Below are positions 10,396 to 33,545 of a stretch of 64,000 nucleotides of DNA, piece by piece (the first letter of the stretch is position 1; every line of letters starts with the position of its first letter). Both the position numbers and the translations under genes were made by a program. The notes beneath the pieces were generated by a model that saw only the letters and a list, made by a program, of their open reading frames with translations, searched no databases and was not told the origin of the DNA. This stretch comes from Thermoplasmatota archaeon (lineage in GTDB: Archaea; Thermoplasmatota; E2; JACPAO01; JAHFTW01): NCBI GenBank assembly GCA_041601615.1, contig JBFIHX010000007.1:11853-75852 (forward strand), in the 5' to 3' direction.

Positions 10396-11613
10396 ATGCC
10401 TGTCCTGACCCTGGAAGACGGAGCCGCCGCGAATGCATTCCGTGGCAAGCGTGTTCTGTTGCGCGTGGATTTCAACGTCCCGCTGCGCAAGGGCCGGGTC
10501 CAGGACGATTTGCGCATCACGGCAGCACTCCCGACGGTGCGGTTCCTGCAATTGGCGGGCGCCCGCGTAGTGCTCGTATCGCATTTGGGCCGACCCAAGG
10601 GCCAACGCGTACCCGAAATGAGCCTCGAACCGGTCGCCAAGCACATGACCAAGGTGCTCGGGGTGCCCTGTGGCTTCGTTCATGAAACCGTGGGCCCGAA
10701 CGCAACCTCGGCTGTAGCGGCACTCAAGGACGGCGAGGTGCTGTTGTTGGAAAACGTGCGATTCCATGTGGAAGAGACAGACGGCAACGAGGAGTTTGCG
10801 CGCCGCCTCGCCAACCTTGCGGATGTGTTCGTCAATGACGCCTTTGGCACCGCCCACCGCGCCCATGCCAGCACCACGCTGGTTGCCGAGCACTTGCCAA
10901 GCTATGCGGGGCTTTTGATTGCCAAGGAGCTTGCGGCCCTCGGTGGAGCGCTCGCCGAACCCGCTCGCCCGTTCACAGCGATTCTTGGCGGCGCGAAGGT
11001 CAGCGACAAAATCGCCGTCATCGAAGCCCTCCTGGAGAAGGCGGACCGAATCATCATCGGCGGCGGCATGGCGTTCACGTTCCTGCGTGCCCAGGGCCAT
11101 GAGGTCGGCCGCAGCATCGTGGAGGAAGACCGCCTGGACCTTGCCCGCGATTTTCTGGCCCGCGCCGAGGCCAAGGGCGTCGAGGTGTTCTTGCCGGAGG
11201 ATGTGGAGGAGGCCGATCGATTCGACGAGAAGGCCGACCACCGCGCCGTGAAGGTCGGACATCAAGCCAAGGACTGGATGGGGCTCGACATTGGCCCTCT
11301 CACAATCACACGCTTTGCTGAGGCGGTGCGCACGAGCCAAACCGTGCTCTGGAACGGCCCGATGGGTGTGTTTGAGTGGGACGCGTTCCGATTCGGGACC
11401 AAAGCGATTGCCGACGCGCTCGTGCAGTGCCCTGGCGCGACCGTGGTGGGAGGTGGCGATTCAGCGGCCGCGGCGCGAAAGTTTGGGATCGCCGACAAGG
11501 TGACCCATGTCAGCACCGGCGGCGGGGCAAGTCTGGAGTTCTTGGAGGGCAAGATTTTGCCTGGAATCGAAGCGCTGGAACGGGCGGCTCGGCGCACGAC
11601 GCCTTCCTCGTAA
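10396..11613 (+). CDS. pgk: phosphoglycerate kinase
   Basis: RVDFNVP, SHLGRP, LLENVRF, DAFGTAHRAH, GGAKVSDK, HVSTGGGASLE. Confidence 0.97.
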   Translation: MPVLTLEDGAAANAFRGKRVLLRVDFNVPLRKGRVQDDLRITAALPTVRFLQLAGARVVLVSHLGRPKGQRVPEMSLEPVAKHMTKVLGVPCGFVHETVGPNATSAVAALKDGEVLLLENVRFHVEETDGNEEFARRLANLADVFVNDAFGTAHRAHASTTLVAEHLPSYAGLLIAKELAALGGALAEPARPFTAILGGAKVSDKIAVIEALLEKADRIIIGGGMAFTFLRAQGHEVGRSIVEEDRLDLARDFLARAEAKGVEVFLPEDVEEADRFDEKADHRAVKVGHQAKDWMGLDIGPLTITRFAEAVRTSQTVLWNGPMGVFEWDAFRFGTKAIADALVQCPGATVVGGGDSAAAARKFGIADKVTHVSTGGGASLEFLEGKILPGIEALERAARRTTPSS

Positions 11614-11672
11614 CAGGGTCATCGGAGCGCAGCGACGGTGGCCCCTGGGGCCCGCAGGGGCAAAGCCCCGCG
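11614..11672 (+). repeat. hairpin element (GAGCGCAGCGA motif, then GGGG-led stem-loop)
   Basis: cgcaggggc-aaa-gccccgcg stem at 11653-11672, preceded by GGGG. Confidence 0.6.
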
Positions 11673-11753
11673 TTGGAGTTCCGGGAGGGCAAGATTTTGC
11701 CTGGAATCGAAGCGCGGGAACGGGCGGCATTGCGCTTGACAACCTCGGCGTAG
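11673..11753 (+). pseudogene. diverged duplicate of the pgk 3' end (27 codons incl. stop)
   Basis: Ungapped match to 11533-11613; LEFREGKILPGIEARERAALRLTTSA* vs LEFLEGKILPGIEALERAARRTTPSS*. Confidence 0.9.
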
Positions 11754-11765
11754 GCGGCTTGCCGC

Positions 11766-12578
11766 TCACTTGTGGTAGTCAGGCCCGAGCATGGCGCCGA
11801 GCATGTTGGTCTCTTTTTTCAGGTCCCCAAAAGTGTACCAATTCTTTTCGAGCCCCTTGGCGACGTGTGCTGCGGCGACCACGGCCAGTCCTGCGAGCGG
11901 GTCTGGGACGACGGTGGCGGCAAACAGCAGCCAGATGGTCACGTCTCGGTTGAACAAGAACGGAATGTAGAACGTGGTGGAGCCGCCCTTGGTTCGATTG
12001 CTCACGGGAACATCAAGGACGAGGGGTGCCGGCGCGAGCGTTGTGGCGCGAAGGAGCTTGAGTTCCTTTTGGACCATGTAGAGATCATGCTGAATCATGG
12101 ACCAGCGGAAGTAGACGATGCTGAAGGCGGCAATTGCAGGAACGGCCACGGCTGCCCAGGCGGGCCAGTCGAGGACCCCTTGATGAGATGGTCGAACCAC
12201 GGCCCCGACGGCGAGTGCCGCAATCCAGCCGACTTCCACCCAGCGATCAATGATGGTGTCCAGCAATCCACCCGCCAATGTTCCCGTTCCCGTGGCGCGG
12301 GCGACTTGGCCATCGCAGTGGTCCCAGAGCAAGCCAACAATCAACAGTCCGCCACCCAACCACGCGCTGTATGCAATGGGCGCAAGCGCGAGCACCGCCA
12401 TACCTGCAATACTGATGGCCAGCGAGAGGAGACTCACTTGCGTCGGGGTTAGACCGATGCGCAAGAACACCCGCGTGAACGGCAGCGCCATGCGCGTCGT
12501 GATGTTGGCCACGAAGGATCGGTTCCAAATTCCTTCACTGTACAATTCTTTGAAGGGTTTGGGCTGGGCCACGTCCAC
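11766..12578 (-). CDS. CDP-alcohol phosphatidyltransferase family protein
   Basis: DHCDGQVAR...GGLLDTIIDR signature. Confidence 0.88.
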   Translation of the reverse strand: MDVAQPKPFKELYSEGIWNRSFVANITTRMALPFTRVFLRIGLTPTQVSLLSLAISIAGMAVLALAPIAYSAWLGGGLLIVGLLWDHCDGQVARATGTGTLAGGLLDTIIDRWVEVGWIAALAVGAVVRPSHQGVLDWPAWAAVAVPAIAAFSIVYFRWSMIQHDLYMVQKELKLLRATTLAPAPLVLDVPVSNRTKGGSTTFYIPFLFNRDVTIWLLFAATVVPDPLAGLAVVAAAHVAKGLEKNWYTFGDLKKETNMLGAMLGPDYHK

Positions 12579-12639
12579 GACGCGGGCCGGCGTGTTATGG
12601 CTGTTTTGGTCTTCCCCACCCGCTTCGCACCGATTCGGC

Positions 12640-12942
12640 TTACGACCGCATGACGCTCATCACGAACGTCCCCACGGCCAGCAGGCTCCCGATCGTCGCC
12701 GCAAGCACGGCCACGAGGCTGCTTGCGATGATGGTGGCGTTGAACCTGGGCTCGATGCCGGGAACAAGCGGCCAAGTGAGGGCTGCAAATAGGCCGATGA
12801 GCAGAATGGCCACGAGCGCAAGCGCGAATCCGATGCCCCTGCTGCGGCCTTGGCCAAAGTAGGAACCGAACAGGCCGGCAACGAGGAGGGTAAATCCGAA
12901 TCCCAGGAGGACGGTCGAAAGGAAGATGCTGCCGAGCGCCAT
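12640..12942 (-). CDS. small membrane protein
   Basis: Three hydrophobic helices; YFGQGRSR loop. Confidence 0.7.
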   Translation of the reverse strand: MALGSIFLSTVLLGFGFTLLVAGLFGSYFGQGRSRGIGFALALVAILLIGLFAALTWPLVPGIEPRFNATIIASSLVAVLAATIGSLLAVGTFVMSVMRS

Positions 12943-13175
12943 CAGAATTTGGTGCCCGTCAGGGTCTTGGTGTCCACGACGCCCTCGATGGAGCGGATTT
13001 TGTTGACGATGACGTGCCCGAGCGTGTCGAAGTCTGCGGCCTCCAATTTGGCAATGAGATCGTACTCACCGAAGAGGGGGTGCAGTTCCACAATTTCCGA
13101 TACTTTCAGGAGCGTGTTGTACACGTCGTGCTCCTTTTGGGGAGCGGCGCTGATGAGGACGAATCCGACTGCCAT
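12942..13175 (-). CDS. stand-alone Lrp/AsnC ligand-binding domain protein
   Basis: MAVGFVLI...LFGEYDLIAK...IRSIEGVVDTKTL. Confidence 0.9.
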   Translation of the reverse strand: MAVGFVLISAAPQKEHDVYNTLLKVSEIVELHPLFGEYDLIAKLEAADFDTLGHVIVNKIRSIEGVVDTKTLTGTKF

Positions 13176-13261
13176 GGGCGACGACCGTTTGTGTGGATGG
13201 GGGAGTCGTGGGCTTAAGCGTTCCGAGGATTCTGCGGGGTTTGGGCGTTGCGGGGAGCTGC

Positions 13262-13828
13262 TCAGGGGTAGCGATAGAGGGCAACGTGCACGTTCACGAT
13301 GCCTTCGGCGGTCGCTTCGACGGTGTGGGTGCCGGCTTCGAGGAGGCCGCAATTGTGTTGCTTGCCGCGGCTGAGACCGTTGGTGCTGGCGCCTGCGCCG
13401 GCGACGATGGCTCCGCCCCCGCCGTAGCTGGAAACATGTTGGCAGCTTCCGAGGCTGCCGCCTGCCGAAAGGAAGGCGCCCGTCATGGGTTCAAACAGGA
13501 GCGTGTATTCGCCCGCCTCCAAGGCAAAGTCCAGGCTGCCTTCAAGAAGTCCGTCAGGGCCCAAGGTAACGTTGCGTGCGGCGACGCGGTACTTTGGCGC
13601 GAGGGGCATTCCGGGTCGGCCCGGTTGGCCAGGCTCGCCCGAGGTGCCGTTTTCGGCTGCAGCGGTTTCCTCCGTTTCCGGCTCGGTGTCCGGGTCCGCG
13701 GGTGCCGTGGGTTCTAGGTCCGCGTCGTGCGTAGGTTCGGTACCCTCGTCGGTGTTTGCACCGTTTTCGTCTTCGAGGCACCCACCAAGGGTTGTCAAAA
13801 CCAGCAAGAACACAATCAATGTGCGCAT
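13262..13828 (-). CDS. hypothetical lipoprotein
   Basis: Signal peptide with LGGC lipobox and acidic linker. Confidence 0.65.
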   Translation of the reverse strand: MRTLIVFLLVLTTLGGCLEDENGANTDEGTEPTHDADLEPTAPADPDTEPETEETAAAENGTSGEPGQPGRPGMPLAPKYRVAARNVTLGPDGLLEGSLDFALEAGEYTLLFEPMTGAFLSAGGSLGSCQHVSSYGGGGAIVAGAGASTNGLSRGKQHNCGLLEAGTHTVEATAEGIVNVHVALYRYP

Positions 13829-13879
13829 GGGCACCGCGATTCGTAGGGGTTCTTGATGTTTTTGCTGGATTTCCAGTAT

Positions 13880-14701
13880 TTACCAGGGGTGCATGATGCC
13901 TGCAGCGTCGCGGTGTCCGACACCAAATTCGGGAACGTGCGCAAGCGTTTCGCTGTCCAAGACCGGTCCTTCGACGCAGACGCGCAAGCCGTCGCCCACG
14001 GTGCAGGCGTCACAGATGCCCACGGCGCACTTCATGTAGCGCTCCAGAGAAGCTTGGCACGCAACACCCGCCGTTCGGCATTGGTCGACGACGCGCACCA
14101 TCATGCCCTCGGGGCCGCAGGCGTAGACGGCATCGAAGCTGCCTTCGCCTAGTTCTGCGAGTCGCTGGGTCGTGTATCCGTCGAAGCCGAGCGTGCCGTC
14201 GTCGGTGCAGGGTTCGTAGTGGAGGCGGCCTTGTTCTTGGCGCTTGGAAAGGTACGGGTGGAGCAGGAGTAGATTCTCCGAGCGCGCTCCACTTACGACT
14301 GTGACTTCGTGGCCCTCTGCGTGTGCTTGGGCAGCGCCTCGCGCCATGGGTGCAATGCCGGTGCCGCCGCCGACGAAGCAGACGCGGCCAGGCTCGGCTG
14401 GGAGTTTGAAGCCCGTGCCGTAGGGGCCGCGCACACCGATGCGGTCGCCGGCGGCCAATTCGAGAAGCGCCTTGGTGCAGTCGCCCTTGGCTTCGACGGT
14501 GAGTGTCACGCGCCCGGCGGCGTCCGTGTAGCCCGTGCCCATGGGGACCTCGTCGACGCCCGGCACCCACACCATACAAAACGTTCCGGCCGGACTCGCG
14601 GCAATGGCGTCGTCGAAGAACCGAATGGTTGCGTGGCGCTCCGTTTCCCACTCCACCGATTCCAGGCGCGTGATGCGAGGACGTTCCAGGCCGTTTTGCA
14701 C
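13880..14701 (-). CDS. pyrK: dihydroorotate dehydrogenase electron-transfer subunit
   Basis: RGPYGTGF, VGGGTGIAP, CGPEGM, MKCAVGICDAC...C Fe-S motif; start codon uncertain. Confidence 0.9.
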   Translation of the reverse strand: MQNGLERPRITRLESVEWETERHATIRFFDDAIAASPAGTFCMVWVPGVDEVPMGTGYTDAAGRVTLTVEAKGDCTKALLELAAGDRIGVRGPYGTGFKLPAEPGRVCFVGGGTGIAPMARGAAQAHAEGHEVTVVSGARSENLLLLHPYLSKRQEQGRLHYEPCTDDGTLGFDGYTTQRLAELGEGSFDAVYACGPEGMMVRVVDQCRTAGVACQASLERYMKCAVGICDACTVGDGLRVCVEGPVLDSETLAHVPEFGVGHRDAAGIMHPW

Positions 14702-14787
14702 AAGGGGGCCCAGGCCGGCGGGGTCAAAAAAGCAGGCATCGGTCCAAGATCGTGGGGGAAGAACCGGCACCCAGCCTTATTCCCCTA

Positions 14788-15498
14788 GTGCAAGCGGTCC
14801 ACGAGCGCCTCCGTGGCGCTCCGCTGCGCCCGGACCCGCACGTTGCGTTCTACCCCTACACCTCGGCCAAGAGCACGATTCGCATCCGTGATGGCCGGGT
14901 CCTGTTTCGTTTGAGTGACCACTTGCGCGATGCTCCCGACGCGGCGATTCGTGGGGTGGCGGGGGTGCTTTTGGTGCGGCTGTTTCGACTTCCGGATGGG
15001 CGGTTGGACAGGGATGAGGTGCGGGCGTATCGTTTGCATGTGGATTCGGACAAACTTCGGTCTCGTCGCCGGGAGACGGCGGGGGCGCGGGGGCGCAAGC
15101 ACATGGATCCTATCGGGGATCATCGAAGTCTCTTGGAGTCGTTTCTGCGCGTTAGCATGGATATGAACCTCGCACTTCCAGATGCGCCGAAGTTGAGTTG
15201 GAGTCGCACGCGGAGCCGGCGGCGGTTTGGCCATCACGACGCGGACCATGGCGTCATCGTGCTTTCTCGGGTGCTCGACGACCCAAAGGTGCCGGAGTTT
15301 GTGCTTGATTTCGTGGTGTACCACGAGTTGCTGCACATTCTGCATCCGCCCTTGATGGGTTCAGGTGGCAAGCGGATGATTCACCATCGGGCGTTTCGCG
15401 AGGCGGAAGCGCGCTTCGGGCAGCGGGCGGAAGCGGAGGCGTGGCTGCAGCGGTTGGCTTCGGCGCGGCCCGTCAAGCGTGGTGTGCGGCGCCGGTAA
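14788..15498 (+). CDS. YgjP/M48-like zinc metallopeptidase domain protein
   Basis: VVYHELLH...HHRAF motif; start uncertain. Confidence 0.75.
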   Translation: MQAVHERLRGAPLRPDPHVAFYPYTSAKSTIRIRDGRVLFRLSDHLRDAPDAAIRGVAGVLLVRLFRLPDGRLDRDEVRAYRLHVDSDKLRSRRRETAGARGRKHMDPIGDHRSLLESFLRVSMDMNLALPDAPKLSWSRTRSRRRFGHHDADHGVIVLSRVLDDPKVPEFVLDFVVYHELLHILHPPLMGSGGKRMIHHRAFREAEARFGQRAEAEAWLQRLASARPVKRGVRRR

Positions 15499-16381
15499 CG
15501 TCGGCAAGGGTCCGGACGTTTTCCTTTTCCATCCACGCCGTGAGGTCTTCTTCGATGGCCGAGAACACATCCCAGCCTTGGTGCATGACGGCGGTGCCGA
15601 TTTGGAATGCTTGGGCGCCGGCCATGGCGTATTCGAGCACGTCGCGCGCTTCGTAGATGCCGCCGCTGGCGATGATGGGCACTTCGACTTTCTGGTAGAG
15701 GTCCCAGACCGCGCGTAAGGCGACCGGTTTTAGCGCCTTGCCGCTCAGACCGCCGACTTTGTTGCCAAGCACGGGGCGGCGCACGTCCGGTTCGATGGCG
15801 ATCGCTTTGAGGGTGTTGGTGGCCACGAGTGCATCGCTGCCAGCCTCTTGGGCGGCGAGTGCGATGGCGGTGATGTCGCTGGTGTTGGGGGTGAGTTTGG
15901 TCCAGATGGGAACCTTGACTGCGTCCTTGACGGCCGCGACGACGCCATGCAAGACTTTGGGGTCGCTGCCGAGTTCCGAGCCGTAGCCTTTGGCGTGGGG
16001 GCAGCTTACGTTGAGTTCGATGGCGTGGACGCCGAGTGCTTCCATGTCTGCTGCGAGTCGTGCATATTCGGCGGCGTCGCCGCCAAACACGCTGCCGATG
16101 ACGGTGGCGCCGGCTGCGAGGGCGGGTTCGATTTCCTCGCGAAAGTGCGCGACGCCGGGACCTGGCAATCCCATGGCGTTGAGGAGGCCGCCGGGTACTT
16201 CGACGACGGTGGGGTTGGGGTGTCCTGGCCGCGGTTTGGGCCCCATGGATTTGGTGACCACGGCGCCCACGCCTTCGCGCACGGCGCGGGCCATGCTGGC
16301 GCCTGTTTCGTCGAGCACACCGGAGGCCAGTAGGAGCGGGTTCTGGAGTTCTAGGCCAGTCAAGCGCGTGCGCAGGTCCAC
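15473..16381 (-). CDS. pyrD: dihydroorotate dehydrogenase class 1B catalytic subunit
   Basis: LNAMGL, ELNVSCPH, KLTPN, TNTL, GGLSG. Confidence 0.95.
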   Translation of the reverse strand: MDLRTRLTGLELQNPLLLASGVLDETGASMARAVREGVGAVVTKSMGPKPRPGHPNPTVVEVPGGLLNAMGLPGPGVAHFREEIEPALAAGATVIGSVFGGDAAEYARLAADMEALGVHAIELNVSCPHAKGYGSELGSDPKVLHGVVAAVKDAVKVPIWTKLTPNTSDITAIALAAQEAGSDALVATNTLKAIAIEPDVRRPVLGNKVGGLSGKALKPVALRAVWDLYQKVEVPIIASGGIYEARDVLEYAMAGAQAFQIGTAVMHQGWDVFSAIEEDLTAWMEKENVRTLADVTGAAHHA

Positions 16382-16453
16382 GGCGTTGGCGACGGGGGGC
16401 GGTGTTTCAAAGGTATGGCTTGCGTGCTCCTGGCCGGTTGGCTCGTGGCGGGT

Positions 16454-16762
16454 TTAATTCCAGACGAAGCAAACGGTGCGTGGTTTGCCTTGGACGTAGA
16501 GTTGGGCGCTGTTGGGGCCGGCGCACTGGCGTACTTCCACGGGTTGGTCGGCGGCTTCGGGCAGGATGACGAAGCACTTGCTGGCGGGTTGGCCGTTGAT
16601 CCAGAGTTGGAAGCTTTCGTACTGGGAATGGCAGGGCCGGATTTCGACGGGGAATGCGGCTGTGTCCAGCGCGGTTGCGGGGTTGGCGGTTGCGGCGGGT
16701 GCCATGGCGAGGGCGGTCACGAGGGTTGCGAGGAAGAGGCCGAGCAAGCGTGGTGCGTGCAT
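16454..16762 (-). CDS. secreted Cys-rich protein (two 2-Cys modules)
   Basis: Signal peptide ending ATA-NP; modules similar to the neighbouring gene. Confidence 0.7.
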   Translation of the reverse strand: MHAPRLLGLFLATLVTALAMAPAATANPATALDTAAFPVEIRPCHSQYESFQLWINGQPASKCFVILPEAADQPVEVRQCAGPNSAQLYVQGKPRTVCFVWN

Positions 16763-16848
16763 GGGCCCAAAATCATCGACGGGGTCATGATGCTTGTCTC
16801 GTGGACCGTTGGTAGCCAATCCGGGCGGTTGTGTGTGGAAGCGGCGGT

Positions 16849-18033
16849 TTAGACGCCGTGGGGCAGCGGGATGCAGGCGGTCTTGAGCACGTTGAGCACG
16901 ATGATTTGGACGCCGTTGTCGGGGTGGTTGCAGCGGTCATTGACGACGACGGGTGGGCCGTTGGTGCCGATGCATGGGGTGACGGGGCTGTCGTTGACGT
17001 AGACGCGGACGCCGCGGGGGACGCAGGGGCGCACTTCCACTTCGGGCGGCGCGTCGGAGCTGGCGTCTTGAGGCGGCGGCACGAGGAAGACGCAGGGCCC
17101 GGTGGCCTTGCCGGAGAGGTACAGTTGCCAGCTTGGGTAGTGGGCGTTGCAGCGGGCGCGTAGTTCGATGGGGTTGGCGGCTTCGGTGGTGGAGCCGGGG
17201 CAGCACGGGGGGCATTCGCCGACGGTCACGAGCCGGAAGACGGTAAGTTCGTAGGTGCCGTCCGAGCAGGGCTGGGCGCGCAGCACGAGGGTGCACTCGG
17301 AGGGTGGCAGGGGTTCATTGAAGCGAAGGGCGAGGCCTCCGGGGCCTTCACAGCGCTCGACGGGCCAGGAGTGGTCGCTGCTGGTGGGTACGGAGCCGAG
17401 GGTGCCGGTGGGTTCGCAGCAGGGGCGGCAGGCGCCGGTTTGGATGTGTCCGGCCACGACGAGGTATCCGCCGCCGCCGGGGCAGTAGTACACTTCGACG
17501 AGTTTGATGCACCTGGTTGAGGCGGGACCTAGGTCGATTTGGTAAGCCAGTTCGTCGCATTGCTGGATGGGGTTCTCGAAGCCGCTCGTGGCGCGGGGCG
17601 GGTTGATGCAGCAGGGCGGGCAGTTGCCGATTCGCGTTCCGCCAAGGACAGTCACTTCGACGTTGGAGCCGTCGGGGCAGACGAGGATGCGCACGATGCG
17701 GATGCAAGGGGTGGGCGCCAGGGGGTCGACGACCATGACTGCGAGTTCTCCGCGGCCGCCGCATGCTTCGACGGGGAAGGGGCGGTCGCTGCCATCGAGG
17801 CTCGCGGCGCCGAGTTGGACGCATTGGCCAGCGACTTGGACGCCGCCGTCGCAGTGCCAAATGATGGGTGGTTGGCAGTCCTGGACGCGGTGGCCGTTGA
17901 CGTCCATGGTCATGCCTTCGCCTTCGGGACAGGGGCCTGTTTGGATGTCCAGCGGGTTGGCGGTGGCGACGGGGGTTGCCACAAGCGTGGCTGCAAGTAG
18001 GATGCTTAGGGTAAGCAAAGCGAGTGTTCGCAT
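16849..18033 (-). CDS. secreted Cys-rich modular repeat protein
   Basis: Signal peptide; about 10 Cys-paired modules; three CxPCC linkers. Confidence 0.75.
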   Translation of the reverse strand: MRTLALLTLSILLAATLVATPVATANPLDIQTGPCPEGEGMTMDVNGHRVQDCQPPIIWHCDGGVQVAGQCVQLGAASLDGSDRPFPVEACGGRGELAVMVVDPLAPTPCIRIVRILVCPDGSNVEVTVLGGTRIGNCPPCCINPPRATSGFENPIQQCDELAYQIDLGPASTRCIKLVEVYYCPGGGGYLVVAGHIQTGACRPCCEPTGTLGSVPTSSDHSWPVERCEGPGGLALRFNEPLPPSECTLVLRAQPCSDGTYELTVFRLVTVGECPPCCPGSTTEAANPIELRARCNAHYPSWQLYLSGKATGPCVFLVPPPQDASSDAPPEVEVRPCVPRGVRVYVNDSPVTPCIGTNGPPVVVNDRCNHPDNGVQIIVLNVLKTACIPLPHGV

Positions 18034-18185
18034 ACGGGGACTGGAAGGCGGGCGCCGCATGAGTGTTGGCCGGCGGTTCTGGATTATCCAGACACGGATG
18101 GGTGCCTCAAGGGGGGGGGCTGGGGTCAAGTGGGCAAAGCGTGCACGAGTCTTGCTCGGCCAAGCATCGACGAGGTGCCTTGGGC

Positions 18186-18428
18186 CTAGTCGTAGCAGCG
18201 GATGATTTGGACGGCCAGCACCCAAACCGCGTTGCCGCCGCCAGCGCAGGGCTCTTCGTGGTAGATGCGGGTGTGCGGTTCGCCGCCGATGCACTCATCC
18301 ACCGGCCCGGCCACCACATGCAGGCCCCAGGAGCGACATTCGCCGACCTCTACTTCGGGCCCGGCGCTGGCGACGGGGAGGGTCAGGAGTACGAAGATGG
18401 CGGCGGCCGCGAGGGCAAAAATGCGCAT
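18186..18428 (-). CDS. small secreted Cys-rich protein
   Basis: Signal peptide ending ASA; 4 Cys; PEVEVGEC resembles neighbours' modules. Confidence 0.65.
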   Translation of the reverse strand: MRIFALAAAAIFVLLTLPVASAGPEVEVGECRSWGLHVVAGPVDECIGGEPHTRIYHEEPCAGGGNAVWVLAVQIIRCYD

Positions 18429-18564
18429 CAGATTGGCATGAACTAGCGGCTATTAGGTTGAGACAGGTGACAAATGGGAAACCACGCGACAATCACGGCA
18501 TCGTGCGCACCGGAGGTGCCGGGAGTCAACTAGCCGTAGAACCTCGCTCGCCCCCGCCAATCCA

Positions 18565-18633
18565 CTAGGCACCCAGAAGGTGCCGTGCGATGACAAGCCG
18601 CTGAATCTCGCTCGTACCTTCGAAGATTCCAAA
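18565..18633 (-). pseudogene. diverged duplicate of the acyl-CoA dehydrogenase 3' end (23 codons incl. stop)
   Basis: Ungapped match to 18703-18771; FGIFEGTSEIQRLVIARHLLGA* vs FEIFEGTSEIQRLVIARHLLGG*. Confidence 0.9.
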
Positions 18634-18700
18634 CGAAGGGCCCTCCGCGCCCTTCGCAACCCCGGGAGCGCGGCACTCGCTCCGCTCGGCCCCGCCGCTC
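18634..18700 (-). repeat. hairpin element (GAGCGGAGCGAG motif, then GGGGT...CGAAGGGC-GCGGAGG-GCCCTTCG)
   Basis: Perfect 8-bp stem at 18634-18656; core AGGGCGCGRAGGGCCCT shared with copies at 33.3, 35.1 and 48.3 kb. Confidence 0.7.
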
Positions 18701-18702
18701 CA

Positions 18703-19848
18703 CTAACCGCCCAGTAGGTGCCGCGCAATGACAAGCCGCTGAATCTCGCTCGTACCTTCAAATATTTCGAAGATTTTGATGTCGCGCATGTACCGTTCCA
18801 CGTTGTAGTCGGTTGTGTAGCCGTTGCCACCATGGATCTGTACACCCTCGATTGTGGCCTTCATCGCCATTTCGCTGGCAAACAACTTGGCGCGGCTGGC
18901 GGCGTGCGTGACGGGCTTGCCTTGGTCCTTGAGCCATGCCGCCTTGAGGTACATGTTGCGGCTTGCTTCAACATGGACGTCCATGTCCGCTAGTTTCCAC
19001 TGAATCGCCTGGTTGGCCGCGATCGGCTTGCCAAATTGGTGCCGCTCCTTGGCGTACGCGATGCTGTCTTCCATGGCGGCGCGAGCGATGCCGGTGCTTC
19101 CAGCGGCGGCCATGATGCGGCCCGTGTCCAGGGTGCTCATGGCGACTTTGAAGCCGTCGCCCTCGCGCCCGAGCAAGTTTTCGGCGGGAACGTGCAAGTT
19201 CTCAAAGAAGAGTTGATTGGTGTAAGAGGCGTTGAGCCCTAGTTTGTGCTCGTTGCGGCCCACCGTGAATCCTTTGCTCTTGGTATCCACCACGAATGCC
19301 GATACGCCGCGTGCGTCCGTCGTTGCGGGGTCCGTTCGAGCAAACAGGATGCAGGTGTCTGCCACCGCCCCGTTGCTGATGAACATCTTCTGGCCATCGA
19401 TGATGTACTCGTCGCCTTCGCGCCGTGCGGTGGTTTTGAGGCTGCCCGCGTCGCTTCCCGCTTCGGGTTCCGTCAGGGCGTAGCAGCCAAGTTTCTTGCC
19501 GCTGGCAATGTCTGGAAGCCATTGCTGTTTTTGCTGCTCGTTGCCCCAGTGCAAAATCGGACTGACCGTGAGGCTGGAGCAAGCGCCGAAAATGACCGAG
19601 TGGCTAGCGCAGGCCCAAGCGAGTTCTTCGGCCACCAGTGCAAAACTGATGTAATCCGCGCCCGGGCCGCCGTATTTTTCGGGCACCGTGATGCCCAGCA
19701 AGCCCAGTTCTCCCATGCGCTTCGTGGTCGCCTCGGGAAACGAATGCTCGCGGTCGTGCGTGCGCGCCACGGGCTTGATTTCGGTTTCGGCAAACTCGTG
19801 CACCATGTCCCGGATCATCTGCTGCGACTCGGAGAGGGCGAACTCCAT
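18703..19848 (-). CDS. acyl-CoA dehydrogenase
   Basis: ALTEPEAGSDA, GQKMFISNG, QIHGGNGY, IFEGTSEIQR. Confidence 0.95.
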   Translation of the reverse strand: MEFALSESQQMIRDMVHEFAETEIKPVARTHDREHSFPEATTKRMGELGLLGITVPEKYGGPGADYISFALVAEELAWACASHSVIFGACSSLTVSPILHWGNEQQKQQWLPDIASGKKLGCYALTEPEAGSDAGSLKTTARREGDEYIIDGQKMFISNGAVADTCILFARTDPATTDARGVSAFVVDTKSKGFTVGRNEHKLGLNASYTNQLFFENLHVPAENLLGREGDGFKVAMSTLDTGRIMAAAGSTGIARAAMEDSIAYAKERHQFGKPIAANQAIQWKLADMDVHVEASRNMYLKAAWLKDQGKPVTHAASRAKLFASEMAMKATIEGVQIHGGNGYTTDYNVERYMRDIKIFEIFEGTSEIQRLVIARHLLGG

Positions 19849-19991
19849 GCAGCGCTGCCATGCGGGCTCGACTTTAGAACGGCGTCGTCACGGCCCGGCG
19901 AGCACTGGGAATTCCGCGCCGTCTTAGTTTGTGCCGGCAATCGGCCAAAGTCCGCCAAAATAGGGATATACGGGAACGTCTCGGCTCAACC

Positions 19992-20780: not shown

Positions 20781-20799
20781 CCATGAGCCAGCCGGCTCG

Positions 20800-22469: not shown

Positions 22470-22521
22470 GGGCGCGCCACCGGGGCCGGATACATATTCG
22501 TTGGCAGGGCCGTGGCTCCGG

Positions 22522-23370: not shown

Positions 23371-23463
23371 AGGCATGATGGCCACGGAGCCCGTACTTTA
23401 TCGGTGTGCCGAGACGCAACCGCTTATGGTCGGCGCGGCCTCGCCGGCTTCGTGGAAGAGCGC

Positions 23464-24294: not shown

Positions 24295-24439
24295 CACGAA
24301 CGCTCCGCCCAAGCGGGCGCAGGGGATTGGAAACCATGCTCAGACCCGGCTTAAGGCCCACTCGCTGGCCTCGGTGCGAAAGCGGACGCTGCTTCGGTGG
24401 CAGAATCAAGTTCCACTCCCGGCGAGCTTCGAACCGGTT

Positions 24440-25216: not shown

Positions 25217-25350
25217 AAACCGCCCACGCAGCCGCCACGATATGATGTGTTCGGAGGAAGCGCATGAGCGATTGCAGCAGCGCCAGCGTCATGCGACGCT
25301 TTTTCTAGGGCTCCACAACCCTTAACACGATGTGCTCCAACCCCTGATTC

Positions 25351-26499: not shown

Positions 26500-26520
26500 A
26501 CCAGGAACTCGGAGGCGAAC

Positions 26521-26670
26521 CCCACGCCCCCAATCCCTCCTTGATCCCTCCTCCTCTCTCCTCATCCCTTCCTCATCCACACTCCTCCACCCCCATTCCA
26601 TCCCTGTCTCATCCACCCCCATTCCATCCTTTCCTCCTCCACATTCGTTTCCTTGCATTCCCCTCGCATG
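26521..26670 (+). other. C/T-rich, G-depleted tract (possible terminator region)
   Basis: About 150 nt with very few G, directly after a stop codon. Confidence 0.45.
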
Positions 26671-26907
26671 TTTGGCACCCCATTTTGGGCTCCAAACCCG
26701 ACGAAACACCTGACGGACCCCCGCGCAACAAAACGGGAAATCGCGCCACGAGCACCCCTTCCGTCGGACCCGGGACACAACCCTTATGCAGCACGGCTCC
26801 AACGCCAGAGCGAACGCGTCCGCCGCCCAGCCCAGCCGCAGACTTCACCAACCCGCACGGAAGGTATGAGTAGCGGCAAAGACAGGTGGACCCCTCGAGG
26901 AACCCCC

Positions 26908-28623: not shown

Positions 28624-28639
28624 GCAAGCCGCTTGGAGC

Positions 28640-28790
28640 CTTCTTTCCCCCTCACCCCTCCTCCATCCCGCGATCCTTTCTCCCTTCCTTTCCCCCTTCC
28701 TTTGCCACCCTCCCATCGCATCCCCTCCTCCGCCCCCACGTCTTGATTCATTTCATCCACCATTTCCCCATCAATTCCCCCTCCGCGCCC
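28640..28790 (+). other. C/T-rich, G-depleted tract (possible terminator region)
   Basis: About 150 nt pyrimidine-rich tract after the oxidase stop. Confidence 0.45.
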
Positions 28791-28900
28791 AATTTGCCCC
28801 CGGAATCCGTTCCGCACTCCCGGAATCTTCCATCCGATACCCTAGCATCATTAGGGAAGAATGACGGATTTCTTGAAATTCCCCCCGCGTATGACGGCCC

Positions 28901-29146
28901 ATGCGCGTAGCCCTCATCTTCGCCGCCTTGCTCCTGACCGCCGGCTTCGCCTTCGCCCCCTCCAGCAGTGCCGCAAACTGCGGCGGCACCGTCGACATCG
29001 ACTGCGACGCCTCCTACTGCACCATCTACGCATTCAACGGCATCCGCCCCTACTGCGTCTACGGCGAAAATGGCCACTGCATCGTCTACACATCCGTCAC
29101 CATCGCCAGCATCACCACCAACGCACTCACCTGCATCCCAAACTAG
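28901..29146 (+). CDS. small secreted 6-Cys protein
   Basis: Signal peptide ending SSA; 6 Cys in about 57 mature residues. Confidence 0.65.
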   Translation: MRVALIFAALLLTAGFAFAPSSSAANCGGTVDIDCDASYCTIYAFNGIRPYCVYGENGHCIVYTSVTIASITTNALTCIPN

Positions 29147-29223
29147 TCCCAGCCGCCCCCACCTCTTCCTAAACCCTTAAACCACGGCCAACTTGGCGCA
29201 GCCCGTCCCTGGGAGCGCACGCC

Positions 29224-29799
29224 ATGTACCGTATCATCCAAATGGAAGACACCGTCCGGATCCCGCCCGAGCGGATGACCGACGAACTCACGACGACCAT
29301 CGCTGTGCTTGTGCAGGAATCCTTTGAAGGACGCCTGACCAAAAACCACGGCATCACCGTCCTGACCACCAACGTCCTGCCCAAGGGCCAGGGCAGCGTC
29401 ATCCACGGCGACGGCGCCATCTACCAAAAGGTCGGCTTCGACGCGCTTGTCTTCAAGCCCGACGTTCAAGAAGTCGTGGACGGCATTGTTGCCGAAGTCG
29501 TCGAATTCGGCGCCTTCGTCCACATCGGCCCCCTCGACGCACTCGTCCACATGAGCCAAGTCATGAACGACTTCATGACCGCCGACGTGCACAACGAGCG
29601 CCTGACCGGAAAGGAATCCGGCCGCTTCCTCGATGTTGGCGACAACGTGCGCGCCCGCATCGTCACCGCCAGCCTCAACGAACTCTCGCCCCGCGAATCC
29701 AAGATCGGCTTGACTATGCGCCAGCCCGGTCTCGGCAAATTCGAGTGGATCGAAGAGGACCGCATCCGGGCCCGCGAACAGGCCGCCGCAGGAGCCTAG
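29224..29799 (+). CDS. rpoE1: RNA polymerase subunit Rpo7 (E')
   Basis: VRIPP, GDGAIY, FGAFVHIGPLDAL.H.SQ, IGLTMRQPGLGK. Confidence 0.97.
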   Translation: MYRIIQMEDTVRIPPERMTDELTTTIAVLVQESFEGRLTKNHGITVLTTNVLPKGQGSVIHGDGAIYQKVGFDALVFKPDVQEVVDGIVAEVVEFGAFVHIGPLDALVHMSQVMNDFMTADVHNERLTGKESGRFLDVGDNVRARIVTASLNELSPRESKIGLTMRQPGLGKFEWIEEDRIRAREQAAAGA

Positions 29800-29805
29800 A
29801 ACCCC

Positions 29806-29985
29806 ATGCAGCGCGCTTGCAAGAACGATCACTTCCTCACCGAGGAAGCCATCTGTCCCCTCTGCGGCGGACCCACCAGCAAGAACTGGAGCGGCATCCT
29901 GACCATCATCGACGTAGAAAACAGCCAGATGGCTGAAGCGATGAACGTCACGAAACCCGGCAGCTACGCCCTCAAGGTCCGGTAG
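29806..29985 (+). CDS. spt4: transcription elongation factor Spt4 (RpoE'')
   Basis: Not in the ORF track (59 aa): MQRACKNDHFLTEEAICPLCGGPTSKNWSG...PGSYALKVR; canonical position after rpoE1. Confidence 0.92.
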   Translation: MQRACKNDHFLTEEAICPLCGGPTSKNWSGILTIIDVENSQMAEAMNVTKPGSYALKVR

Positions 29986-29989
29986 TCCC

Positions 29990-30178
29990 ATGACGACTAC
30001 CCTAGAGTCGGTCCCCAAGCTCGTCAAGGCACTGCCCGACGACGCCAAGGCCCTCTGGGTCGAGGAATACAACCGCGATTTCGCCTGGCGCTGCAGCGAA
30101 TCCCACGCCGAAAAGGCCGCCTGGCTTGCCGTGCGCCAATCCTACAAACAGGACGGCGACGCATGGTCGCGCCGGTAG
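29990..30178 (+). CDS. ChaB family protein
   Basis: LP..A..LW...YN...E..A...AW.AV...Y.....W pattern. Confidence 0.75.
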   Translation: MTTTLESVPKLVKALPDDAKALWVEEYNRDFAWRCSESHAEKAAWLAVRQSYKQDGDAWSRR

Positions 30179-30726
30179 CCGACGCCTCCACCAACCCAGA
30201 CCTGCGGCCCACGCGAGCCTACGCACTGCCCATGGCTTTGCGTCATCGCTTTGCCGAGCCTTGGGGCCCGGTCCTCTCCACGAAGGAACTTGCTGAAGCA
30301 CTTGGACCAGGCGACGTGCTGGTGGCCGTGGGCGATGTGGTAAGCCTTACGCTGAAGGACCTTGGGCACACGCCTCGACTTATCGTGGTGGATTACAAGA
30401 CCCAGCGCGGCGACGAAGACCCCGCGTTGCTTGCCGCGCTAGGATCGTGGGGAACCCGAGAAATCCGTGTCATCAACCCGGCAGCACAACTCACCCGAGA
30501 CGCCTGGACCGCCGTGCGCCGCGCCATGCTGCTTGAAACCGGCGGCCCCGTGCGCATCGTCGTGGAAGGTGAAGAGGACATGGTGGGCCTTGCGTGCTTC
30601 TTGGAGGCGCCACTCGGAGCGAAGGTGATGTACGGAGTCCCCGGGTGCGGCGTTTGCCTCGTGGAGGTCTCCGAAGGCGTTCGCCAGCGATTGCGTGCAT
30701 TGGTTGCCGACCTCGATTCCATTTGA
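30163..30726 (+). CDS. GTP-dependent dephospho-CoA kinase (DUF359)
   Basis: VGDVVS, VDYKTQR, NPA, VEGEED, YGVPG; conserved synteny. Confidence 0.9.
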   Translation: MVAPVADASTNPDLRPTRAYALPMALRHRFAEPWGPVLSTKELAEALGPGDVLVAVGDVVSLTLKDLGHTPRLIVVDYKTQRGDEDPALLAALGSWGTREIRVINPAAQLTRDAWTAVRRAMLLETGGPVRIVVEGEEDMVGLACFLEAPLGAKVMYGVPGCGVCLVEVSEGVRQRLRALVADLDSI

Positions 30727-30886
30727 GGCATGTGTTTTTCATCCCCGTGATTTCATAATTCTAATATCTTGCGAAGAGGCCTCATTTCTACTGGTTCGCT
30801 CATTCAAATGCCAAATGAGAAGGATACGTTCCAACGAGATAACCAGCCGCACGGGCTTTGTAGTAGCCTCGACTCCGGAGCAATCG

Positions 30887-31924
30887 ATGAAGCGTTCATG
30901 GTTCCTCCTAGGAGCACTCTTGCTCCTAGCAACCGCCTCCGCGCAGACGCCCGCCGCCTACCCCGTGGTTGAATCGACGCTCTACCTCAGCCAAGCCACG
31001 GCCGACGTTCCCGGCTTCGGCACCGTGCTTTTGATGGGCCCCGACGCGCCACAAGGAGCCGCTCCCGCCGGAGGCGCCACGCCCTACGCGCCCCTTCTGG
31101 ACGTACTCGGCGTCGAAGACGGAACGCTTCTCTGGATGTACCCAGACACCCCCACTGTCGACCTCGAAATGGTCGGCGATGTGGAATTCACACTCGAATA
31201 CAGCCTCACCGTCGAAGCCGCCGCGGACCGCGTCGTGCGCCTCCTGGCAGCCGGCCCCAACGGCGAATTGGTGCAACTTGGCGAAGCTCGCCGCCAAACC
31301 TCCGCCCCCGACCTGCTTCCCTCCACAGAAACCTTCCACATCCCCACCCACGGCCAAATCATCCCCGCCGGCCACCGCATCGCTCTGGAGATCTCCATTG
31401 AAGGCACCTCCATGCTTGGCATCATCACCTTCGGCAACACCGGCAGCACCAGCGCCATCGACCGCATCTCCCTCCGCGTCCTCGACTCGGACCACGACGG
31501 CGTCGGCGACACCCTCGAACGCATCCTGGGCACCGACCCCTTCCACGCCACCCCAACCCCAACCTGGACCGACACCGACGGCGACGGACTGCCCAACACC
31601 GTCGAAATCGGCATCGGAACCGACCCCGCCAACCCTGACACGGACGGCGACGGATTTGGCGACGGCACAGAGGTAGCCGCCGGCTCCAACCCCAACGACC
31701 CCAACAGCACACCCTGGGACCGCGACAACGACGGCGCCCCCGATCTACTTCCTGACGCCCTAGACAACGGCACGCCGAGCAGCTCCCCCGGAGGCCCCTC
31801 GCTCACTGGAGACCTAGGCTCGAACACGCCGGACCTCACCGGCACCGGACCCATGCTCGGAGGCGCACTCGCCGCCACCAGCCTCGGGTTCGCCGCACAC
31901 GCACTCGGGAGGACCCGACCATGA
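30887..31924 (+). CDS. secreted/anchored protein with thrombospondin type-3-like Ca-binding repeats
   Basis: Signal peptide; DSDHDG, DTDGDG x2, DRDNDG; C-terminal hydrophobic anchor. Confidence 0.75.
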   Translation: MKRSWFLLGALLLLATASAQTPAAYPVVESTLYLSQATADVPGFGTVLLMGPDAPQGAAPAGGATPYAPLLDVLGVEDGTLLWMYPDTPTVDLEMVGDVEFTLEYSLTVEAAADRVVRLLAAGPNGELVQLGEARRQTSAPDLLPSTETFHIPTHGQIIPAGHRIALEISIEGTSMLGIITFGNTGSTSAIDRISLRVLDSDHDGVGDTLERILGTDPFHATPTPTWTDTDGDGLPNTVEIGIGTDPANPDTDGDGFGDGTEVAAGSNPNDPNSTPWDRDNDGAPDLLPDALDNGTPSSSPGGPSLTGDLGSNTPDLTGTGPMLGGALAATSLGFAAHALGRTRP

Positions 31925-32601
31925 ACAAATACACCCTGTACCACCGCATCGCCGCAGCCATCAGCCTCGCCCTGTTCGCCCTCATGATCTGGGACCACTT
32001 CGGCAACGACGGCAACTGGCTCGTCCCGCTCGTCATCCTGTTTGCGCTGCACATCCTGATCCAATTCCTGGTCATCATCAGCATGCGCGTCACGAACACC
32101 GAGTACATCCCTGCCCCCGTGCCAACCCCCGCGCCCGAGCCGGCCCCCGAGGCTGAGGAAGACGACGGCCCCTTCCGCTACGGCGACTACACCCTCTACG
32201 CCACGAAGACCCAAGACAAAGGCGGCAACTCCCGCTTGTTCTACTTCTTCAGCAAGCGCATCCCCCGCAAGGGCGCCCCCGTGGCCAAACCCGCCGGACA
32301 CCACGTCGGCGTCAACAAAATCACCGGCCTGCCCTTCCTGAAGCGCGGCGCCGGAGCCGATGGCGAGGTGCTCAAGGACGTAACTCCGCACGTCGCCAAG
32401 CAGTGCCAAGCCCTCACCGCCGCCGGTGGCCAATGCCGCAATTCCGGCCGCGTCGACAGCAAATACTGCGCCAGCCACAAAGGCTACCGCCCGCCTGCCG
32501 CCGACTCCGTCACCATGGAAAGCGACACCACGCCACGCAACCGCAAAGCCGTCGACACCGTGCCCAGCACCCGCAAGAGTACGTCCAACCCGCCCTCCTA
32601 A
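31921..32601 (+). CDS. membrane protein with shared ~55-aa domain and Cys/His finger
   Basis: 2 TM; YTLY...FYFFSK...VNKITGLPFLKR; CQALT..G.QC...YC..H. Confidence 0.75.
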   Translation: MNKYTLYHRIAAAISLALFALMIWDHFGNDGNWLVPLVILFALHILIQFLVIISMRVTNTEYIPAPVPTPAPEPAPEAEEDDGPFRYGDYTLYATKTQDKGGNSRLFYFFSKRIPRKGAPVAKPAGHHVGVNKITGLPFLKRGAGADGEVLKDVTPHVAKQCQALTAAGGQCRNSGRVDSKYCASHKGYRPPAADSVTMESDTTPRNRKAVDTVPSTRKSTSNPPS

Positions 32602-32694
32602 ACAGGCACGAAACGTTGAATAACGAGCACGGCTGGGCGACCCTGTCCTACCTGGGACGCCCGGCCCCTCGGGGCCTGGTCGAGGTGAACCATC

Positions 32695-33003
32695 ATGAAC
32701 ATCGAAATCACGAAGAAATTCGACAACGCACTCTTTGGCCGCAAGGACATCGAGTTCGTCCTGCGCCACGACGGCGAACCGACGCCCAACCGCGTCCACA
32801 TCCGCCAACTCGTCGCCAGCGAAATCGGCAGCAAGACCGAGCACGTCGTCATCGCCCGCATGCGCAGCGAGACCGGCATCTCCGCCACCCGTGGCATCGC
32901 CCGCGCCTACGAGAACGCCGACCTCGCCCGTGCCCAAGAGCGCGTCCACTTCCTGAAGCGCAACAACCTCTTCAAGGACCCCAAGAAGGAGGCTGAAGCA
33001 TGA
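32695..33003 (+). CDS. rps24e: 30S ribosomal protein S24e
   Basis: NALFGRK..F...H..EPTP.R, G.ARAY, RN; GAGGTGA Shine-Dalgarno. Confidence 0.93.
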
Positions 33004-33146
33004 GCTCCTTCTACCAAATCGACGGCGACAAGCTCGTCCGCCTTCGCCGCGCCTGCCCCAAGTGCGGCCCCGGAACGTTCCTCGGCAAGCACAAGGACCG
33101 CGAAGCCTGCGGCAAGTGCGGCTTCACCGAGTTCAACACCGCCTAA
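33000..33146 (+). CDS. rps27ae: 30S ribosomal protein S27ae
   Basis: Not in the ORF track (48 aa): [40 protein letters not shown]. Confidence 0.95.
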
Positions 33147-33294
33147 GCGGTCCAATTCGGGCGCTGCCCGCCTCCTCCATCCTTCTTCTTCCTTTTCCTT
33201 TTGAAGCCAAGGCCTCGTTTGGATGCCCTTGGCGCTTTGACAAAAACCCTGGTTTTTCAGGGCCATAAAGCCGACGATTCCTGGAGACTATGGT

Positions 33295-33397
33295 TTCGCC
33301 CCGGGTCGTCGGCCGTAGGCCGGCGGCCCCTCCGGGGTACTCCGAGGGCGCGAAGGGCCCTAGGGGCGTAATCCGAGGGCGCGAAGGGCCCTAGGGG
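33295..33397 (+). repeat. dispersed hairpin element, copy with two tandem stem-loops
   Basis: ttcgcccc-gggtcgtcggcc-NNN-ggccggcggccc, then 2x ccgagggcgcgaagggccctagg. Confidence 0.88.
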
Positions 33398-33545
33398 AGG
33401 CAAACTCGTCCGCCTACGCCGCGCCTGCCCCAAGTGCGGCCCCGGCACGTTCCTCGGCAAGCACAAGGACCGCGAAGCCTGCGGCAAGTGCGGCTTCACC
33501 GAGTTCAACACCGCCTAAGCGGTCCCATTCGGGCGCTGCCCGCCT
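33396..33545 (+). pseudogene. duplicate of the rps27ae 3' part (41 codons) plus 3' flank, no start codon
   Basis: Matches 33024-33146 with 5 substitutions; 3' flank also duplicated. Confidence 0.92.

Follow-up and report, generated by a model that had tools for sequence, protein, structure and literature searches.

Why should genes of one archaeal genome be followed by a hairpin and then, from the next base on, by a second, start-less copy of their own last codons? The question is raised by a 64,000-nt stretch (the window; contig C7, positions 11853-75852) of G000, a Thermoplasmatota metagenome-assembled genome (MAG) from marine metagenomes (2.79 Mb, 30 contigs, 62% G+C, 93% complete), where genes identified by Pfam as PGK (pgk), acyl-CoA dehydrogenase (ACD) and ribosomal protein S27a/S27ae (S27ae) all show this arrangement. 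At each locus, X is the gene-end copy within the intact gene, U the spacer, E the double-hairpin element and X' the second copy after E; hp1 and hp2 are the first and the second, last hairpin of E. Positions without a contig name refer to the window. The reading that we tentatively favour, at somewhat less than even probability, is that X, spacer and E together form a cassette-like, hairpin-bounded tail-replacement unit lodged in gene ends, one of a lineage-wide class. The link of the class to an integron integrase of the same genome is circumstantial.

Three gene-end duplicates in the window

A repeat search of the window returned duplicates at pgk (11534-11612 versus 11674-11752; 84% identity, offset 140), ACD (18545-18633 versus 18683-18771; 85% identity, offset 138) and S27ae (33024-33173 versus 33396-33545; 96% identity, offset 372). 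All three downstream copies are ungapped, lack a start and reach their stop at the homologous codon. Base 1 of each copy directly follows the last stem of the spacer, as a preliminary description of this DNA had proposed in placing the start of the copies at or within a few nt of the 3' base of a hairpin. The features of the three loci are as follows.

10396..11613, plus strand: pgk gene (Pfam PGK, 511 bits), its last 27 codons (11533-11613) being X; repeat D8
11614..11672, plus strand: pgk spacer and E of family F4, terminal hairpin at ~11653-11672, from folding
11673..11753, plus strand: pgk X', a start-less tail copy whose stop codon (11751-11753) and that of the convergent gene are 12 nt apart
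11766..12578, minus strand: convergent CDP-alcohol phosphatidyltransferase gene, the native downstream context, with the same neighbour in the sister species G002
18703..19848, minus strand: acyl-CoA dehydrogenase gene (Pfam), its tail (18703-18771) being X; repeat D7
18634..18702, minus strand: ACD 3' untranslated region (UTR) and E of family F2, hp1 with GAGCGGAGCGAG loop at ~18665-18701 and hp2 at 18634-18656, from folding
18545..18633, minus strand: ACD X', the last 22 codons, stop at 18565-18567 and ~20 nt of UTR, bridged by a contig of run X3
33000..33146, plus strand: S27ae gene (Pfam Ribosomal_S27), X being 33024-33173 (41 codons and 27 nt of UTR); repeat D2
33174..33294, plus strand: S27ae spacer U, unique, ~85% conserved in G002, with small hairpins, from alignment
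33295..33395, plus strand: S27ae E of family F3, its second module in two tandem copies; repeats D4 and D10
33396..33545, plus strand: S27ae X', 41 codons, stop and 27 nt of UTR, with the same junction in G002

The 26-nt hairpin core of the pgk element was found elsewhere only at the carB locus (C5:144943-144968), likewise flanked by a duplicate, and a 47-nt stretch of the ACD element on C7 is 94% identical to the one that follows a paralogous ACD gene (C3:212893-212939). The PGK of the window is of bacterial type: in the genome collection a single Thermoplasmatota MAG matches it at 71% identity, and the next best matches (52-59%) come from Firmicutes and other bacteria. No nearer relative was found, the closest match being 71% in genome contigs and 59% in metagenome contigs.

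A genome-wide class of duplicates joined at a hairpin

Whole-genome self-comparison (offset ≤700 nt, ≥80% identity, ≥40 nt) gave 83 direct-repeat rows in 62 loci, and 22 loci of G000, counted by inspection, show the order X-U-E-X'. The recurrent, hairpin-bounded architecture of the preliminary description thus stands, its three sets of coordinates and offsets having been confirmed and its occurrence extended genome-wide. In the orientation of E the anatomy is constant: X, a short U, a GC-rich two-hairpin E, and X' from the next base. Duplicates vary in length from 15 to 200 nt, and the E units (60-220 nt) contain no genes. Members of the class include the ends of pgk, ACD (C7), S27ae, GAPDH, proton pyrophosphatase, a second ACD, NucS and trpA-like genes. 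The class is not restricted to the 3' ends of housekeeping genes, as had been suggested, but also takes in a gene 5' end (carB, where E is antisense to both neighbour genes), a tRNA 3' end, tandem arrays and a locus with cargo.

Hairpins are associated with the duplicates across the genome. A perfect stem of at least 6 bp ending no more than 6 nt from the downstream copy is present at 16 of the 62 direct-repeat loci, compared with 87 of 4000 random positions. The figure of 16 is a low estimate, since some known cases escape through BLAST edges or imperfect stems.

In the locus with cargo (NucS, on C4), X is followed by a complete F1 element, 5.76 kb of lower-GC cargo, a second hp2 standing alone, and X'; the hairpin foot can therefore also close a gene-carrying insert. 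The NucS copies differ by seven synonymous changes and one non-synonymous change. The cargo encodes TPR, winged-helix and two unknown surface-type proteins, and its open reading frames (ORFs) gave no integrase, recombinase or nuclease match in Pfam, PHROGs or PDB sequences.

The arrays bring in the chief rival explanation, tandem duplication in situ, by which E would insert after a stop codon and a replication or repair error (a stalled fork, an uncut hairpin flap) would duplicate the stretch from some point in the gene to the hairpin foot, with gene conversion, unequal crossing-over and allele turnover by homologous recombination acting later. Such an origin is a real possibility, if an unlikely one. 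It would fit the tandem arrays of two to three near-identical units (94-100%) at C1:24136, C1:235617, C2:114747, C5:35052, C5:91934, C10:84236 and C17:7449, and also the loci at which UTR and then the opening 10-30 nt of an E come after X' (C2:306458, C1:421679, ACD, locus L105 of G020 and locus L111 of G002). However, at five or more loci (pgk, C2:181894, C3:92343, ACD on C3 and NucS) the likeness of X and X' stops at or within the stop codon, and at these five no remnant of a second spacer and E lies between X' and the native DNA downstream, so that duplication in situ would need five precise deletions of the distal spacer and element. Nor was consistent microhomology seen at the E|X' joint, among joints inspected by eye.

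Differences between the copies and register of the joint

Codon comparison of X and X' at 12 G000 loci with checked frames (367 codons) gave 60 synonymous and 24 non-synonymous changes (pS 0.224, pN 0.029, pN/pS 0.128), with 16, 10 and 58 changes at codon positions one, two and three; third-position changes of all kinds dominate. For an X' drifting freely beside a constrained gene we calculate an expected pN/pS of ~0.5, and both copies therefore carry the mark of purifying selection. This agrees with the earlier view that the copies do not resemble neutrally decaying duplicates, and with its statement that changes are mainly synonymous in two of the three copies of the window: ACD has eight synonymous and two non-synonymous changes in 22 codons, and S27ae four and one in 40. 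The pgk copies (six and eight in 26 codons) and those at C6:159469 appear more decayed than the other loci. Against duplication in situ, the pooled ratio is far under the value for a drifting copy. A diversity-generating retroelement was also considered and rejected, the changes being mostly third-position ones of all kinds and not adenine-specific, and no RVT_1 domain being present.

Differences are concentrated next to the joint, with 30 in the first 12 nt (144 nt pooled) versus 54 in the other 957 nt (odds ratio 4.4, p = 2e-8); at 11 of 12 loci at least two fall within these first 12 nt, and 22 of the 30 are at the third codon position. The joint itself, by inspection, lies on a codon boundary in 15 of the 17 loci with a well-defined hairpin end (p = 4e-6 against one third, 0.004 against a generous 0.55). 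Also by inspection, seven loci have GGA, GGC or GAA as the second codon of X', the corresponding codon of X being GAA, GAC or GAT.

Both edges, hairpin foot and codon boundary, would be accounted for by an RNA-mediated origin, in which a stable mRNA 3' fragment, its 5' end locked in frame by co-translational decay and its 3' end protected by the hairpin, would be circularised or copied into DNA in tandem. The common orientation of E and gene in the 3'-end cases would follow as well. However, the genome has no RVT_1 reverse transcriptase, the carB element is antisense to both neighbours and X' is mostly not followed by E, which together make an RNA-mediated origin highly improbable. A retro-copy reading was likewise weakened by the failure to find RVT_1 in the genome.

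Families and structure of the elements

E is short (55-110 nt), non-coding and made of two hairpins, and falls into several sequence families: F1 (~10 loci), F2 (~4), F3 (15 genome matches), F4 (2), F5 and singletons. Copy number is low, from 2 to ~12 loci per family, with nearly all copies flanked by a duplicate, and F1 alone occupies at least eight different genes. In F1 a conserved linker separates a long first hairpin from a second one of 7 bp. Pair four of the second stem is C-G, A-T or G-C depending on the genome, and the outer pairs of this stem co-vary too. In every family the joint is the last base of hp2, followed by TT in a few loci only (NucS, pgk and ACD, by inspection). Members of one family do not share a conserved X-E spacer, and the ends of E in the families inspected have no terminal inverted repeats. 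An Rfam search of the window assigned E to no family, and the F1 and F3 cores had 0 matches in viral contigs. Between species E is better kept than the genes that it follows: F3 at S27ae is 97% identical over 71 nt in G000 and G002 and F1 82-93%, compared with 78, 81 and 82% for pgk, ACD and S27ae.

Solo copies of E also exist. Those inspected lie directly after stop codons, in gene orientation, as duplication in situ would lead one to expect, and two of them are in the window:

35072..35180, plus strand: solo F3 element directly after the stop of the gene at 33634-35070, with no flank duplicate (best upstream-versus-downstream score 17)
48260..48346 (C7:60112-60198), plus strand: solo F3 element after a stop codon, with no flank duplicate

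Low-copy dispersed families with defined ends, in which the duplicate always flanks the element, would also be in keeping with a miniature transposon mobilised by a transposase with very long, variable staggered cuts, the duplicate being a target-site duplication. IS1549 and IS1634 make very long, variable target-site duplications. Two single-copy DDE_Tnp_1 ORFs of 545 and 481 aa are present on C2 (C2:312907-314544 and C2:206188-207633, both on the minus strand). However, no link of either ORF to E was observed; neither has flanking direct or inverted repeats and the two regions are dissimilar, E-like ends not having been specifically searched for. The lack of terminal inverted repeats, the unconserved X-E spacer, a right edge of the supposed duplication that coincides with the stop codon at five loci, and the synonymous bias all argue in the same direction, and we consider a miniature transposon very unlikely.

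Orthologous loci in related genomes

The comparison set comprised 32 genomes of the family, among them G002, a sister species in the same genus as G000, and G007, G012 and G020 from three other genera. F1 is present in all four of these named relatives. Of 11 F1 copies examined there, 8 have their upstream flank repeated from position 0-1 behind E. All four F1 copies of G002 are at loci orthologous to F1 loci of G000; the pyrophosphatase joint is identical in the two species, and the joint of the C2:181894 gene is shifted by 6 nt (two codons). In G012, an array of at least four units of tail plus F1 was observed in L103 (G012:C84, ~locus 1381-1680). Its first unit has no stop codon and the ORF appears to read through F1 into the next unit; one hp2 of this array is interrupted by a 55-nt insert.

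The entire S27ae structure (spacer, E and joint) is orthologous in G002. In a four-way comparison of X and X' from both species (123 nt), 6 (+1) sites are species-specific and common to X and X', and two sites in the first 6 nt are copy-specific and common to both species. The S27ae duplication is therefore older than the split between G000 and G002, and its interior, though not the joint-proximal bases, has been homogenised by gene conversion in each lineage. Much of the likeness of X and X' thus reflects gene conversion and not the recent import that had first been proposed. Concerted evolution of S27ae is also in line with duplication in situ.

The pgk loci of relatives, 11 in all, have no second copy, the sole such copy among 12 loci being that of G000 itself, and in relatives pgk runs straight to the convergent gene. 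The ACD orthologues of G001, G002, G005 and G007 have neither E nor a second copy in the 330 nt downstream, and the tail (GA, then stop) and UTR start of the ACD X' resemble those of G001 and G002. Since the context downstream of X' (the convergent gene 12 nt from pgk; the ACD tail and UTR) matches that of relatives, X' with what follows it is the ancestral gene end, and X-U-E is what was added; the suggestion that an old 3' end had been displaced is upheld by the pgk and ACD orthologues.

The preliminary description had accounted for this displacement by one-sided recombination (homology-facilitated illegitimate recombination), in which linear DNA from a relative would recombine within the gene and its hairpin-cleaved end would be joined illegitimately in the old tail. 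Such an event would explain the synonymous bias, an X' that is the native tail, and an X-side tail and UTR unlike the X' side in ACD and in S27ae of G002. However, no donor signal was found, X and X' not differing in identity to the nearest relatives, and the S27ae structure is inherited rather than recently imported. One-sided recombination would moreover require E to be already at the same gene in the donor, and leaves unexplained the arrays, the carB 5' end, the joint register and the cargo case. It is judged distinctly unlikely.

Assembly and folding controls

Joints were checked in Logan contigs from four runs of one study, the 20-kb stretch covered including ACD and S27ae, with pgk outside it. 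Record 17 of run X3 covers 17947-18727, including the ACD joint, with zero differences; in run X1, records 2 and 6 cover 18637-18757 (ACD) and 33124-33476 (S27ae). The E|X' and X|spacer joints thus lie inside single contigs in two samples, as would not be expected of the strain chimera that had been raised as a possible explanation.

Strain-chimeric or looped contigs are suggested by several properties of the data: the assembly has MEGAHIT-style 141-nt end overlaps, several 100%-identical repeats lie at contig ends, Logan contigs break precisely at words of at least 31 nt shared by X and X', as an assembly-graph loop would, and the loop contigs of run X1 have only ~60% of the depth of their flanks (15.2 versus 26 for 18637-18757, and 18.2 versus 25-29 for 33124-33476). 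Against an artefact stand the bridged joints, copies that are 84-96% alike and not identical, and the recurrence of both architecture and junctions in other species, whose MAGs were assembled independently. Together these make it exceedingly improbable. The lower depth may mean that the unit is present in only part of the population, or that GC hairpins are poorly covered.

Tandem repeats with 95-100% identity and periods of 63-128 nt were also observed at contig ends (C9:1-209, C10:4-230, C14:63346-63603, C18:31219-31454 / C8:100149-100260, C4:235625-235753 and C6:179219-179352). The assembly breaks within such arrays, several of which include the end of a long ORF together with E-like hairpins.

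In DNA of 62% G+C, folding energy alone does not set the three spacers of the window apart. The pgk spacer folds no better than its shuffles (z -0.34, with 66 of 200 at least as stable), and z is -1.52 for ACD (16 of 200 shuffles as good) and -2.28 for S27ae (2 of 200); same-length stretches just past each downstream copy gave +0.85, +0.11 and -0.23 (pgk, ACD, S27ae). The hairpins are taken as real because of their conservation within families and their compensatory changes.

Recombinases and the integron

G000 holds a complete integron. An integron integrase (IntI) encoded on C16 at ~15954-17264 (L133:850-2160) matches TIGR02249 with 414.7 bits (cut-off 265), and canonical attC sites, with RYYYAAC/GTTRRRY boxes, recur every ~0.7-2.5 kb on C16, C21 and C25, with others scattered:

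C16:2895-11880; C21; C25; C1:1943, 2882 and 204498; C2:251459; C4:186276 and 187261; C5:16725: attC sites with canonical boxes

The attC loop motif, GAGCGNAGCGAG, is also the hp1 loop in F1 and F2. The 12-nt loop motif occurs 38 times in the genome (~8 expected by a base-composition estimate), with ~16 occurrences in attC and ~10 in E, as judged by reading their contexts; E and attC share only this motif and an 8-nt word.

Matches to Phage_integrase in G000 number three, on C16, C13 and C8, and the window has none, consistent with the earlier statement that no recombinase is encoded there. The 93%-complete genome yielded no Y1 (PF01797), TnpB (PF07282), HNH, Piwi, LAGLIDADG_3, RVT_1 or rve domain, with positive controls matched. 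A guide-RNA or TnpB-like reading of the E|X' joint was dropped given the absence of TnpB, HNH and Piwi domains from the genome. That no mobile-element enzyme was found is a further point for duplication in situ, and with no enzyme tied to the elements the term 'allele-replacement system' of the preliminary description overstates the case.

The shared loop also admits a bolder reading, in which the elements would be attC-derived folded recombination sites that have become attached to stop codons, and gene tail plus E would be a nascent, partly selfish gene cassette. Such a cassette would be excised with one end at the hairpin foot and the other at a loose secondary site in the gene, and would insert again into that gene, in other copies of the chromosome or in relatives, replacing the tail harmlessly and so amounting to homing without a nuclease. 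The divergent first 12 nt, the codon-boundary joints and GGx at codon 2 could then be the footprint of a secondary-site requirement. This derivation from attC is regarded as rather unlikely.

A candidate tail-replacement unit

In the favoured reading, the tail-replacement unit formed by X, spacer and E would sit in the gene end, so that the gene now finishes in X and its original end, X', is left behind. A hairpin-specific recombinase supplied in trans would cut or close the unit at the hairpin foot; the sole candidate seen is the integron-type tyrosine recombinase of G000, whose attC sites share the loop motif of E. The unit would then enter the homologous gene end, in a copy of the chromosome or in a relative, either at a secondary site or by way of its homologous X, as a small circle in a Campbell-type single crossover. 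Insertions would survive because the gene stays intact, and later unequal exchange and conversion would give rise to arrays and keep X and X' alike.

Several findings weigh against such a unit. Elements of F1-F4 have no AAC...GTT boxes and form two separate hairpins, not one; the joint is at hp2 and the loop shared with attC at hp1; and no enzyme is tied to E. IntI (over the cut-off) is found in 9 of the 32 genomes and F1 in 10, and both together only in G000 and G012. Solo elements exist, 9 of 12 copies checked scoring 25 or less as their best upstream-versus-downstream score, and the pgk spacer has the unexceptional fold given above. Neither a free circle, an empty site nor a donor allele was seen, and X and X' are equally near to relatives (51 versus 50 of 81 for pgk, 39 versus 37 of 51 for ACD). 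A cassette model does not predict the codon-boundary joints (15 of 17) or the recurrent change from GAx to GGx in the second codon of X'.

Comparison with known systems

A close parallel is in fungal mitochondria, where mobile endonuclease open reading frames (mORFs) swap gene C-termini (Allomyces atp6; Glomus atp6, atp9, cox2 and nad3), as set out in PMC3630166. The same paper describes a displaced native tail that is close to the gene of a relative, with differences reported as synonymous, and inserted and native tails that are far more diverged in DNA than in protein. Gene core, replacement C-terminus, mobile element and displaced native C-terminus follow one another in the same order as in G000, and in both systems the inserted and displaced tails differ mostly at synonymous sites. 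However, an mORF encodes a LAGLIDADG or GIY-YIG endonuclease that accounts for its mobility, whereas E consists of non-coding hairpins of 55-110 nt, and G000 has more than 20 different target genes with the joint fixed at the hairpin foot.

Integron cassettes resemble the units of G000 in having a folded hairpin site at the 3' end and an arrayed organisation. Their recombination point is at the 3' foot of the site (G|TT); the joint of E likewise lies at a hairpin foot, but with TT after it in a few loci only. G000 itself has IntI and canonical attC arrays whose loops share GAGCGNAGCGAG with hp1 of E. The systems compared were archaeal integrons (PMC9668308) and the insertion of cassettes outside att sites, at genomic secondary (attG) sites (10.1101/2022.09.11.507474). 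In contrast to attC, E has two hairpins and lacks the RYYYAAC/GTTRRRY boxes, its 'cassette' is a fragment of the neighbouring gene lying in its own gene and in register, and IntI and E do not co-occur across relatives.

Integrative elements of the att type also double a gene or tRNA end on both sides and keep the gene intact, but they carry kilobases of cargo with no hairpin at the joint, whereas E units are geneless and 60-220 nt long, and so many targets would demand many integrase specificities. Ordinary att-like gene-end duplicates of 186, 75 and 93 nt (89-95% identical) are present in G000 at C2:299112-302087, C3:341563-342828 and C9:78303-80115, the paired copies being at 299112/301902, 341563/342754 and 78303/80023. 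Their inserts of 1.1-2.6 kb encode secreted or unknown proteins, are AT-rich at the C2 and C3 junctions, and have no hairpin at the joint and no recognisable integrase.

Small GC-rich hairpin repeats between genes, often just after stop codons, are also typical of repetitive extragenic palindromes and bacterial interspersed mosaic elements (REP/BIME) and of MITEs (miniature inverted-repeat transposable elements). E differs in its low copy number and in having no Y1/RAYT transposase and no terminal inverted repeats, and its duplicates of variable length (15-200 nt) are unlike the short target-site duplication of fixed length of MITEs. The mitochondrial double-hairpin elements (DHEs) of Allomyces are small GC-rich hairpin repeats as well. 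We know of no REP/BIME, MITE or DHE that is followed by a copy of its own upstream flank, and a literature search, supplements not covered, found no report of hairpin elements followed by such a copy.

Other features of the window and genome

An archaeal RNase P RNA (42669-42962, minus strand; 129.5 bits) is the sole Rfam family over threshold in the window. At 38584-39553, repeat families D1, D3 and D5 (54-110 nt, 64-87% identical, spacing 144-528 nt) resemble repeated modules within coding sequence. Elsewhere in the genome, bases 1-141 of C26 (5182 nt) equal bases 5042-5182, giving a circular element of 5041 bp (G+C 0.585) with ORFs of unknown function, possibly a plasmid or virus. Whole tRNA genes are doubled at C4:142560-142747 and C2:252292-252571 (105 and 201 nt apart, 96-97% identical), the latter ~800 nt from an attC site.

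Implications

Look-alike gene ends break assemblies, as at many contig ends here, and may mislead gene callers and strain-level variant calling, and the built-in direct repeats may act as a switch that adds or removes 3' UTR elements among members of a population. The presence of the attC loop motif in E makes the question of how attC sites join genes to form cassettes testable in one organism, and if the attC-derived reading were true this lineage would show the genesis of integron cassettes in progress. If the tail-replacement reading is true, a non-coding hairpin of 55-110 nt would enter the ends of essential genes by bringing a spare copy of the end with it. Such hairpins would persist across speciation and could carry cargo, providing a new and minimal means of spreading or storing DNA in compact archaeal genomes.

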